Below, piece after piece: positions 1 through 1,431 of a DNA stretch of 1,431 nt (its first letter is position 1; the number at the start of each line of letters is the position of its first letter). Below the pieces are notes generated by a model, which ran no database searches, was not told the origin of the DNA, and was given only the letters and a program-made list of their open reading frames with translations. Source of the stretch: Escherichia coli (GTDB taxonomy: Bacteria > Pseudomonadota > Gammaproteobacteria > Enterobacterales > Enterobacteriaceae); the NCBI RefSeq assembly GCF_003334385.1, contig NZ_QOWN01000113.1; one strand, written 5' to 3'. Both the position numbers and the translations under genes were made by a program.

Positions 1-122
1 CGCTCAAGCAACAGCGCATTCTGGCGCATGATCCGGTAAACACGTTTGGCATTGATCGCAGGCATACCATCAAGTTCGGCCTGTCTGCGAAGCAGCGCCC
101 ATACCCGACGATAACCATACGT
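1..122 (-). pseudogene. insD: Internal fragment of IS2 (IS3 family) transposase orfB/insD; 5' end and insC missing, continues past window start
   Basis: Minus-strand translation of 1-119 reads [40 protein letters not shown], which matches the IS2 InsD protein as I remember it (around residues 46-85). The frame upstream of this ([20 protein letters not shown]) is not InsD, so homology breaks near nt 122/123. No start codon or insC is present. This ORF is not in the supplied track because it runs off the window edge. Confidence 0.75.
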
Positions 123-144
123 GTCACGAACGGTGCAATAGTGA

Positions 145-169
145 TTCTTCCGCAACTTGGGTGGAAGAA
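145..169. repeat. Imperfect inverted repeat / hairpin (TTCTTCCGC-aacttgg-GTGGAAGAA)
   Basis: 145-151 TTCTTCC is the exact reverse complement of 163-169 GGAAGAA. The stem extends to 9 bp with one G-T pair (152/162) and a C-G pair (153/161), around a 7-nt loop. It lies 22 bp right of the IS2 junction and 47 bp upstream of the ORF start. No T-run follows on either strand, so it is not an intrinsic terminator. Confidence 0.4.
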
Positions 170-216
170 AATGGATGAAACTTTCTGGTGAACAAAGATC
201 TAAGCTGTTTTAAGTC

Positions 217-1359
217 ATGGGCAACTCAATGCACTCTCTTAAGACACTTCTACAGTTACCTTGCGGATGGCGATGCAGTCGACAAATTATTAGCTCTGAC
301 GGTATAACCCTCCATCTCCACGGAAAACGCAACACAGCACAATGTCCTGAATGCTTTAAGCGTAGCGACTCTGTTCATAGTTGTCGTCGGCGCCGGATAC
401 AGCATCTACCCTGCTCAGGACATACGCTATGGCTTGTATTTTCCGTCCGCCACTGGTACTGCCGTAACCCGGCTTGTTCACGTAAAATTTTTGCCGAGTC
501 GCTTGCTCCCTTCGCCGGTTCACACCAACAGTCTTCACTGGCGTTACAAAATTTACAACGTCAACTGGGATTAATCGCCGGAGGTGAGGCCGGGAAACGG
601 GTAGCAACGGCAGTGGGTCTCCGTTGCAGTGCTGATACTCTCCTTCGCAGGGTTATCAATACCCCGGAGACGAAACAGTCAGGCGCGCCTCATGTCGGTA
701 TTGATGAGTGGGCGTGGCATCGGGGCCACCGTTACGGTACGTTAATCGTCAATCTTGATACTCACCGTCCCCTCGTCCTGCTTCCCGGCCGTGATCAGCG
801 TACGCTGGCGACCTGGTTCAGAAAATATCCGGAAATACAGATTGTCTCGCGTGATCGCAGTGGAGTCTATGCGACAGCAGCACGTGAAGGTGCACCTCAG
901 GCCAGACAGGTGGCCGATCGATGGCATCTGCTAAAAAATATTGGCGATGCGCCTGAACGAATGATGTACAGACATATACCTCTGATACGTCTTGTTGCCA
1001 GTGAGTTGTCACCAAAGAAATCACCTGATCCAGAACCATCTGTGCCTGCAGCATCGCTCCGTCGTTCGGAACGCCTAAAACAACAAACCCGCAAAAAACG
1101 GCATCAGCGTTGGACAGAGGTTATGGCCCTGCATAACAAGGGATGTAGTTTCAGGGAAATATCCCGTATTACAGGCCTGTCGCGTGTGACAGTCAGTCGC
1201 TGGGGGCGTTCAGGAACATTCCCTGAAATGTCAACCCGGCCTCCAAAGCTAGGGCTTCTGGCCCCATGGAGGGAGTGGTTAAAAGAGCAACGAGAAAGTG
1301 GTAATTATAACGCTAGCCGGATATGGCGGGAAATGGTGGCCCGGGGATTTACAGCATAA
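217..1359 (+). CDS. ISL3-family-like transposase with atypical C-terminus (possibly inactive, chimeric or domesticated)
   Basis: 380-aa ORF with ATG at 217, an in-frame TAA at 211-213 just upstream, and stop TAA at 1360-1362. The N-terminus (LLQLP...CPECFKRSDSVHS...RRIQHLPCSGHTLWLVFSVRHWYCRNPACSRKIFAE) fits the zf-ISL3 pattern. An HTH-like stretch covers aa ~108-146. DDE-core motifs are present: GIDEWAW (Asp at nt 703-705), VSRDRSG (Asp at nt 853-855) and VADRWHLLKN (nt 916-918), comparable to the WDE / MDM / DRFH motifs of ISL3 transposases such as IS1167. No obvious Shine-Dalgarno sequence precedes the ATG. Confidence 0.8.
   Translation: MGNSMHSLKTLLQLPCGWRCSRQIISSDGITLHLHGKRNTAQCPECFKRSDSVHSCRRRRIQHLPCSGHTLWLVFSVRHWYCRNPACSRKIFAESLAPFAGSHQQSSLALQNLQRQLGLIAGGEAGKRVATAVGLRCSADTLLRRVINTPETKQSGAPHVGIDEWAWHRGHRYGTLIVNLDTHRPLVLLPGRDQRTLATWFRKYPEIQIVSRDRSGVYATAAREGAPQARQVADRWHLLKNIGDAPERMMYRHIPLIRLVASELSPKKSPDPEPSVPAASLRRSERLKQQTRKKRHQRWTEVMALHNKGCSFREISRITGLSRVTVSRWGRSGTFPEMSTRPPKLGLLAPWREWLKEQRESGNYNASRIWREMVARGFTA
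343..477 (+). other. Zinc-finger region (CxxC ... CxxxxC) of the ISL3-type N-terminal domain
   Basis: Cys43/Cys46 (CPEC) and Cys82/Cys87 (YCRNPAC) are spaced as in ISL3 transposase zinc fingers, with the conserved HLP..G..L.L....R.W.C block between them. Confidence 0.6.
1108..1206 (+). other. Second, C-terminal helix-turn-helix motif within the transposase-like ORF
   Basis: aa 298-330, RWTEVMALHNKGCSFREISRITGLSRVTVSRWG, has the classic L...G.S.REI....G.SR.TVSRW HTH signature. It is followed by RPPKLGLLAPWREWLKEQRESGNYNASRIWREMVARGF, which resembles the segment after the HTH in IS21 IstA and IS481-type transposases. Confidence 0.55.
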
Positions 1360-1431
1360 GCGCTAACTTAAGGGTTGTGGTATTACGCCTGATATGATTT
1401 AACGTGCCGATGAATTACTCTCACGATAACT

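Follow-up and report, generated by a model that had tools for sequence, protein, structure and literature searches.

Junction of an IS100 terminal tip and an ISEc38 left end in Escherichia coli, and an IstA-like module within ISEc38-type transposases

We analyzed a 1,431-nt stretch of Escherichia coli DNA (contig NZ_QOWN01000113.1), referred to in full as the window, in which a fragment of the insertion sequence (IS) IS2 is followed by a 94-nt stretch and by an open reading frame (ORF) from ATG 217. The 94-nt spacer (123-216), which is under study here, had been described in an initial annotation as possibly holding the terminus and promoter of an ISL3-type element. Results showed that 122-216 is the junction of two ISs, IS100 (IS21 family) and ISEc38 (ISL3 family), and not the leader of a single element. 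The features are given below, and labels such as L001 designate the loci used for comparison.

1-121, minus strand: internal fragment of IS2 (IS3 family), transposase gene antisense; its megablast matches are annotated "IS3-like element IS2 family transposase".
122-142, plus strand: tip of the IS100 left end, called X, its outermost 21 nt (TGTCACGAACGGTGCAATAGT), most of one IstA-type terminal repeat (L1).
143-165, plus strand: core of the ISEc38 left inverted repeat (IRL), GATTCTTCCGCAACTTGGGTGGA, matching the right inverted repeat (IRR) of intact copies at 21/23 positions.
145-169, no strand: 9-pair palindrome or hairpin, TTCTTCCGC / GTGGAAGAA, internal to the IRL and reaching 4 nt past the IRL core.
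166-216, plus strand: ISEc38 subterminal region and transposase 5' untranslated region (UTR), with its conserved part at 170-216 (17-sequence alignment A1).
217-1359, plus strand: truncated ISEc38 transposase ORF, 380 of 539 codons, the C-terminal half of the DDE domain being gone.
1123-1353, plus strand: part of an IstA-like tandem helix-turn-helix (HTH) module, residues 303-379 of the window protein, inserted in DDE_Tnp_ISL3 and cut by an IS186/IS421-type insertion.
1355-1431, plus strand: terminal inverted repeat and first bases of an IS186/IS421-type element (IS4 family), matching ends annotated "IS4-like element IS421 family transposase".

The boundaries drawn initially around the spacer hold, as the ORF starts at ATG 217 and IS2 identity runs to about 121-123 (82-123 in a junction query covering 82-161, where the possible extension to 123 comes from a TG common to the next part). 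From 121/122 to 1354 the window matches the element annotated "ISL3-like element ISEc38 family transposase" with 98.7-99.1% identity (megablast, complete E. coli genomes), and the copy differs from the ISEc38 copies of E. coli M8 at 11 of 1212 positions. ISEc38 homology stops at 1354, and in L024, the window's own contig, the remainder resumes after ~1.35 kb. The stop codon TAA (1357-1359) is provided by the inserted IS186/IS421-type terminal repeat (CATAAGCGC...). The window copy is defective: compared with the 1722-bp GG..CC unit of ISEc38, with which it shares ~99% identity, its gene is cut at codon 380 by the IS186/IS421-type element, its terminal GG is now GA, and the right 40% of the element is lost from the window. 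An inverted copy of the terminus, expected downstream by the initial annotation, is absent from the window because the IS186/IS421-type element cuts ISEc38 at 1355; it is present in related intact copies, again at 21/23 (IRR of L001, 3222-3244). The right end of the window copy (L024 4480-4530; L216 2625-2660) adjoins an IS66-family tnpC gene, with ..GCC followed by CTGAAAGTGATCCGCAC. The junction between IS2 and the tip was found in metagenome contig OAWU01000802.1 and in none of 5426 complete E. coli genomes. Since the two flanks of the window copy derive from separate insertion contexts, it is a recombinant.

We compared the outermost 21 nt with IS100 of Yersinia pestis pPCP1 (L129), which starts TGTAACGAACGGTGCAATAGTGATCCAC, finishes GGATCACTTTTCATCCGTCGTTGACA and is flanked by the duplication CCCTG. 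Tip X (122-142) matches its nt 1-21 at 20/21 positions, and the reverse complement of the second tip found around ISEc38, called Y (TGTCAACGACGGATGAAAAGT), matches its last 21 nt at 21/21; X therefore stands for nt 1-21 of IS100, and Y in reverse complement for its final 21 nt. X also agrees at 21/21 positions with the tip located after the ISEc38 unit of L087, and an intact E. coli IS100 (L214) differs from X at one position (AAAAGT for AATAGT). The same tip flanks ISEc38 in L001, L002, L006 and L210, and in some copies the X and Y arms have changed places around the body, whose inner single-base differences do not move with them. The swapped arms, the IS100 identity and an 8-bp duplication in L087 rule out that the outer 21 nt are part of a long imperfect ISL3 repeat. 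The tip has the TGT... terminus of IS21/IS100 elements with about one repeat instead of the two direct terminal repeats per end (L1/L2, R1/R2), and neither istA nor istB; 122-142 is an IS100 remnant, not an IS100 copy. Assigning the spacer to one element's end was correct from position 143, where ISEc38 begins, and wrong for the first 21 nt.

Some further observations concern these tips. At 143-147, the ISEc38 repeat opens with GGTTC (GATTC in this copy), similar to the GATCC found after every IS100 terminal repeat. Tip and unit together therefore rebuild 24-25 of the 26 nt at the start of IS100, a feature of possible relevance to IstA binding. In Rahnella and Budvicia (right flanks of L139 and L133), the ISL3 unit lies beside the second (inner) IS21-type repeat, with both repeats kept (..TGTTTTACATTGGCATCTGGGTC ATTTTTACATCGGTACTAACA). 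When X joined to the reverse complement of Y was used as a query, a 47-bp element with CTGTC 5-bp flanks was retrieved from 514 genomes, inside an IS3-family orfA. It is a "mini-IS100" (L007 2003-2049, E. coli SMS-3-5) made of IS100 nt 1-22 and the last 25 nt joined at an AGTG microhomology, hence an internally deleted IS100 and not an excision footprint of ISEc38; it is unannotated and is essentially a single locus per genome. On the chromosome of E. coli SCU-122, at about 1.94 Mb (L004 2501-4264), an old, pseudogenized ISEc38-like copy with 78 mismatches over 1722 and an internal stop sits between Y and X tips, beside a gamma-glutamyltransferase pseudogene. Most spread-sampled matches at 98.5% identity to the Y-tip query map to chromosomal positions around 1.9-2.0 Mb, and about 2700 records share this identity band, which suggests one conserved chromosomal locus, L004 being the one example fetched.

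We also looked at how ISEc38 itself ends. Exact-pattern scans for the repeat core gave no match in genome or viral contig collections, and relatives were gathered instead by a metagenome scan and a protein-based genome scan; 120 metagenome loci with the repeat core, together with the E. coli loci, gave 19 distinct complete contexts. In intact copies lying in unrelated contexts (L001, L002, L003), identity begins at TGTCA.. and ends at ..TGACA, and the ISL3-type terminus GG[T/C]TCTTCCGCAAC[T/C]TGGGTGGA sits 21 nt inside both outer ends. The motif at 143-156 (GATTCTTCCGCAAC), in which the initial annotation had recognized a possible ISL3 left terminus, is indeed the start of the ISEc38 IRL. The inner GG..CC unit measures 1722 bp in 13/19 contexts and 1721-1723 bp in five more, the remaining one (L027) having an internal deletion, and most of the 19 contexts carry a 21-nt tip on each side, facing outward, in the combinations X/Y', Y/X', Y/Y' and X/X'. 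The ISfinder definition of ISEc38, which we take to be 1722 bp, excludes these tips. GG(G/T/C)TCTTCCGCAAC is kept at both ends in 16 relatives, and intact copies have the ISL3-type repeats of about 15-39 bp starting with GG; the window has the IRL only, starting with GA, a change found among 215 loci only in L024.

The hairpin noted initially at 145-169 is real and mildly non-random: TTCTTCCGC-AACTTGG-GTGGAAGAA forms a 9-pair stem (8 Watson-Crick pairs and one G·T) with a 7-nt loop, and by ViennaRNA it reaches -10.9 kcal/mol in isolation and is the dominant feature in the centroid structure of 123-216. It is the sole hairpin of such stem length in the window; in dinucleotide shuffles of the 94 nt, a stem of at least 9 arose in 1.5% and of at least 8 in 5% of cases (P about 0.015 per 94 nt), and the 94 nt taken together fold with an ordinary energy (z = -0.21). 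Alignment A1 covers 17 left ends taken from 12 genera; in it the loop differs between sequences (AACTTGG, AACCTGG, AACCTAG, AAGTTAG), with hardly any change in the stem arms. The outer three pairs are lost through a 1-nt deletion in L131, L140 and L142 with no compensating change, and L130 has two stem positions altered, also non-compensatory; the stem columns of A1 show no covariation. The inner 5 pairs belong to the repeat core common to both ISEc38 ends and the IRR retains only these (TCCGC/GTGGA), the outer pairs being specific to the left end. No Rfam family matched the hairpin at E up to 1, no terminator was called in the terminator scan, and no T-tract follows. The hairpin does lie between the IS2 breakpoint and the ORF as initially described, and it is not a separate feature, being inside the IRL. 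Considering that its arms lie in or beside the repeat, 48 nt upstream of the ATG, and that a T-tract is missing, the palindrome would be part of a double-stranded transposase-binding site and would have no separate role as an RNA or DNA structure.

The region between the repeat and the ORF is conserved, with 91% mean column identity over 170-216 in A1 for proteins 74-91% identical, and this suggests putative binding sites or regulation. A GATC (Dam site) at 198-201 in the 5' UTR is kept in 16/17 left ends; IS10, IS50 and IS903 regulate transposase expression via Dam sites. The absence of clear expression signals had been noted correctly: a sigma-70 consensus scan found no -35/-10 pair, and no AGGAG-like motif or other Shine-Dalgarno sequence precedes ATG 217, nor does one precede ATG 229. 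A weak candidate pair can be picked by eye only (TGAACA at 189-194, a 16-nt spacer, TAAGTC at 211-216), unsupported by the scan. Transposase expression from 166-216 is presumably weak. ATG 217 is the start chosen by PGAP in intact copies; its position reads AGG or AGC in three relatives (Rouxiella, Serratia M24T3 and Rahnella; A1 columns 75-77), and since it is not kept there, ATG 229 may be the real start.

We then considered the transposase. The window ORF matches the ISL3 family transposase profile NF033550 with 260.8 bits, over profile positions 1-251 of 370, and an intact homologue with 376.3 bits (cut-off 180). Pfam identifies Zn_ribbon_ISL3 and DDE_Tnp_ISL3, the latter split in the intact 539-aa protein into residues 160-295 and 413-534 with generic HTH matches between them. 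The insert of about 117 aa (residues 296-412; L001 2482-2832) resembles the N-terminus of IstA: the IS21 family transposase profile NF033546 matches the window protein over profile positions 2-85 (E 6.7e-9) and intact residues 303-398 over positions 2-104 (E 1.6e-16), BLASTP aligns residues 301-386 with residues 9-98 of IS100 IstA (34% identity, E 3e-11), and residues 10-104 of IS5376 IstA (PDB 8b4h/8q4d) match the insert with E 1.4e-11. The insert was present in 10/10 distant relatives tested, spanning Proteobacteria to Actinobacteria and Cyanobacteria, and its first recognition helix is conserved (SRVTVSRW, ARNTVRRF, SRNTVKRY). By homology, then, ISEc38-type transposases carry in the middle of the DDE domain a ~100-aa module homologous to the IstA N-terminal tandem HTH, which in IstA reads the R1/R2 terminal repeats (PMC10122671). 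This suggests that the inserted module may bind IS100-type repeats and direct integration to their inner edge, as would agree with the homology and with the co-occurrence of the two elements.

We asked where the GG..CC unit is found on its own, without the tips as outer ends. In L087, the bare 1722-bp unit lies in the IS100 IRL with an 8-bp duplication, ACTATTGC, that corresponds to IS100 nt 14-21. The mirror junction was predicted before it was found in E. coli SMBL (L214), where IS100 nt 1-1941, istA and istB included, is intact and runs directly into GGTTCTTCC.., and about ten further genomes carry a related junction. In L015, IS100 runs to nt 46, where its second terminal repeat ends, and the unit begins immediately. 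The right flank of the window copy was tried as an IS21-type end and ruled out, as it is an IS66 tnpC site (..CTGAAAGT followed by GATCCGCAC) that mimics the IS100 repeat. The four independent sites, in which the slash marks the point of insertion, share TG[AC]AA../GATCC:

GTGCAATAGT/GATCCAC
ATGAAAAGT/GATCCAC
CTGAAATCA/GATCCAG
CTGAAAGT/GATCCGC

Bare units were also found in distant relatives from other phyla, with duplications at the GG ends of 8 bp in L166 (CAATTATC) and 6 bp in L159. An 8-bp duplication directly at the GG ends was thus seen in L087 and L166, whereas most copies have instead 5-6 bp outside the IS100 tips. These results show that the bare unit integrates just before GATCC after TG[AC]AA.., which in IS100 is 21 nt from the tip; in ISEc38 itself, one clean case (L087) has the 8-bp duplication typical of its family.

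For the tip-flanked sandwich, comparison of the empty allele of RM10042 (L208) with the filled one of M8 (L001) showed that they differ by the tips, the unit and the duplication CCTCTG. Duplications outside the tips among the 19 contexts include CCATG, AGTAC, GCTCC and GCAAG, and in Serratia, Tenebrionibacter and Citrobacter GGTGC, GTTTC and TGGTG were found. Two M8 plasmid copies (L210 29864-31627 and L211 5962-7725) have exchanged their flanks, and undoing one inversion restores ATTAC and CCGGGA; one of these two insertions split the istA of an ISEc12-like IS21-family element. Relatives in Actinobacteria (Microtetraspora, Microbispora), whose transposases are 31-37% identical, likewise have a 21-nt TGTC.. 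tip plus the GG repeat with 5-bp duplications (CGTGG, GACGA, GGAGT). With at least 11 independent sandwiches having 5-6-bp duplications outside TGT../..ACA, as IS21-type elements do, the sandwich is shown to be a mobile unit with IS100-type duplications, and the duplications and ends together point to IstAB as its mover. E. coli M8 contains four ISEc38 units with 0 mismatches over 1722 bp. Two of their sites were compared with related strains and plasmids, which have only empty alleles there and no IS100-occupied one. No IS100 interior was found on the M8 chromosome or in 150 of 160 kb of plasmid, the last 10 kb and other replicons being outside the search, and the only istAB seen in M8 is the ISEc12-like one disrupted by the sandwich itself.

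Taken as a whole, these data probably reflect the following sequence of events. The inserted HTH module would tether the ISEc38 transpososome to IS100-type terminal repeats, and the bare unit would insert there before GATCC, with an 8-bp duplication. ISEc38 would insert in this way at both ends of an IS100, the interior of that IS100 would then be lost, and ISEc38 would remain between two outward-facing 21-nt tips. This sandwich could then move, either by IS100 IstAB acting in trans or by the chimeric transposase itself. The pairing of ISEc38 with IS100 tips recurs apparently because the ISEc38 enzyme carries a putative IS100-type end-reading module. We are evenly divided on the broader proposal that ISEc38 and its relatives, in at least four phyla, form an ISL3 subgroup with a captured IstA end-reader, hyperparasites of IS100-like elements that home to TG[AC]AA../GATCC, replace the interior and travel within 21-nt tips with a 5-bp duplication.

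Several points weigh against this account. The target motif is defined by three or four bare-unit junctions, and the proposed link between the inserted HTH module and IS100 repeats comes from homology and co-occurrence. No helper for sandwich movement was identified in M8, which has four identical units and no detected IS100 interior. The tips hold about one repeat, whereas IS5376 IstA in vitro requires two complete repeats per end (PMC10122671). Moreover, identical M8 copies (L001, L210, L211) lie in both orientations relative to X/Y, so that the model needs extra steps: A and B copies could yield Y/Y' and X/X' by recombination, and the A/B flip fits no known step of either transposition pathway. 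The true start codon may be either ATG 217 or ATG 229. Finally, a hairpin rarer than chance, with invariant arms and a variable loop, is also the pattern expected of a functional stem-loop.

This last point is what speaks for reading the whole 94 bp as an ISL3 left end, with a regulatory hairpin (a read-through attenuator or a 5' mRNA stabilizer) between terminus and promoter: the terminus does lie in the stretch, and the hairpin is its strongest local structure. We consider this reading very unlikely, as 122-142 is IS100 sequence and the hairpin, placed inside an inverted repeat and 48 nt upstream of the ATG, cannot occlude a ribosome-binding site; it lacks a T-run, a called terminator, covariation and an Rfam match, three lineages lose the outer 3 pairs uncompensated, and the right end has 5 pairs. 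The sandwich might instead never move, IS100 having inserted with its 5-bp duplication and ISEc38 having later replaced the interior in place. Such a replacement would account for the IS100-identical tips, both orientations, the lack of intact IS100 in M8 and the single repeat per end, and the candidate intermediates (L087, L214, L215, L015) agree with it; it would also require that every IS100 copy of a recent ancestor was replaced, and the two M8 sites are known only as empty alleles in related strains and plasmids, never with IS100, which makes it clearly improbable.

It is rather unlikely that ISEc38 is an autonomous chimeric IS whose own outer repeats are the tips, with a 44-nt bipartite end combining an IS21-type and an ISL3-type repeat, its own HTH reading the tip, cleavage at TGT../..ACA, and 5-6-bp duplications made without an IS100 helper, in which case 122-142 would belong to the element. 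One enzyme is not expected to give both 8-bp and 5-bp duplications, and the GG..CC unit also moves alone (L087, L166, L159). In E. coli, the tips agree with each of the two asymmetric ends of IS100 (20/21 and 21/21) although identity between the insert and IS100 IstA is only about 30%, the orientation relative to the X/Y tips differs between copies with identical bodies, and to our knowledge all classical ISL3 repeats end at GG. On the other side, the architecture of tip and GG repeat with 5-bp duplications extends from Enterobacterales to Actinobacteria, always with the HTH insert, and tip divergence roughly follows transposase divergence; the four identical M8 units with no IS100 detected and no IS100-occupied allele at two sites are also what an autonomous element would produce.

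ISEc38 and IS100 were each already known, and their systematic relationship is apparently undescribed. In the searchable literature, with ISfinder, TnPedia and subscription journals outside reach, we found no description of the domain chimera, the landing motif or the sandwich with IS21-type duplications, only resistome surveys or unrelated papers. With IS100, an istA/istB element of Y. pestis and E. coli, the window shares the tip, the sandwich the 5-bp duplications, and the transposase insert the homology to IstA 9-98; here, istA, istB and the interior are absent and about one of the two terminal repeats is left per end.

Other elements offer partial parallels. The IS1111-family elements IS4321 and IS5075 home to the 38-bp inverted repeats of Tn21-family transposons, and so likewise insert at a fixed position in the terminal repeat of another element. 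Their transposase, however, is of the DEDD type and makes no duplication, whereas ISEc38 has a DDE enzyme with, apparently, the end-recognition domain of its victim, and its product keeps both tips and moves with them. In Tn7-like selectors (TnsD, TniQ and CRISPR-associated transposons, CAST) and in tandem-HTH readers (MuA, TnsB, IstA), a DNA-binding module apart from the catalytic core likewise sets the site; in contrast, ISEc38 is a single-protein IS that has the module inside its catalytic DDE domain, with the end of another IS as the probable ligand. Miniature inverted-repeat transposable elements and cargo-carrying non-autonomous elements similarly have short terminal repeats of an autonomous element around unrelated DNA, as the sandwich has those of IS100 with the IS100 duplication length, and the 47-bp mini-IS100 with its CTGTC duplication is comparable. 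In the sandwich, however, the cargo is ISEc38, itself an autonomous IS, and trans-mobilization is only a proposal.

In conclusion, the feature at 123-216 is ordinary as a hairpin, while as a junction it exposes a systematic relation of two IS families. Little is at stake in the window itself, which is the relic of a dead, nested IS. At present, annotation omits the 21-nt IS100 tips, and if they are ignored, the boundaries, duplications and copy counts of ISEc38 will be misread in surveys of the E. coli mobilome. If the proposed mechanism is true, it would clearly exemplify the exploitation of one IS by another and a natural retargeting of transposition by domain insertion, bearing on the origin of target-specific transposases and on the engineering of programmable DDE transposases. 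A testable system is available within E. coli, consisting of IS100, IstAB and ISEc38, the last with its insert or lacking it.

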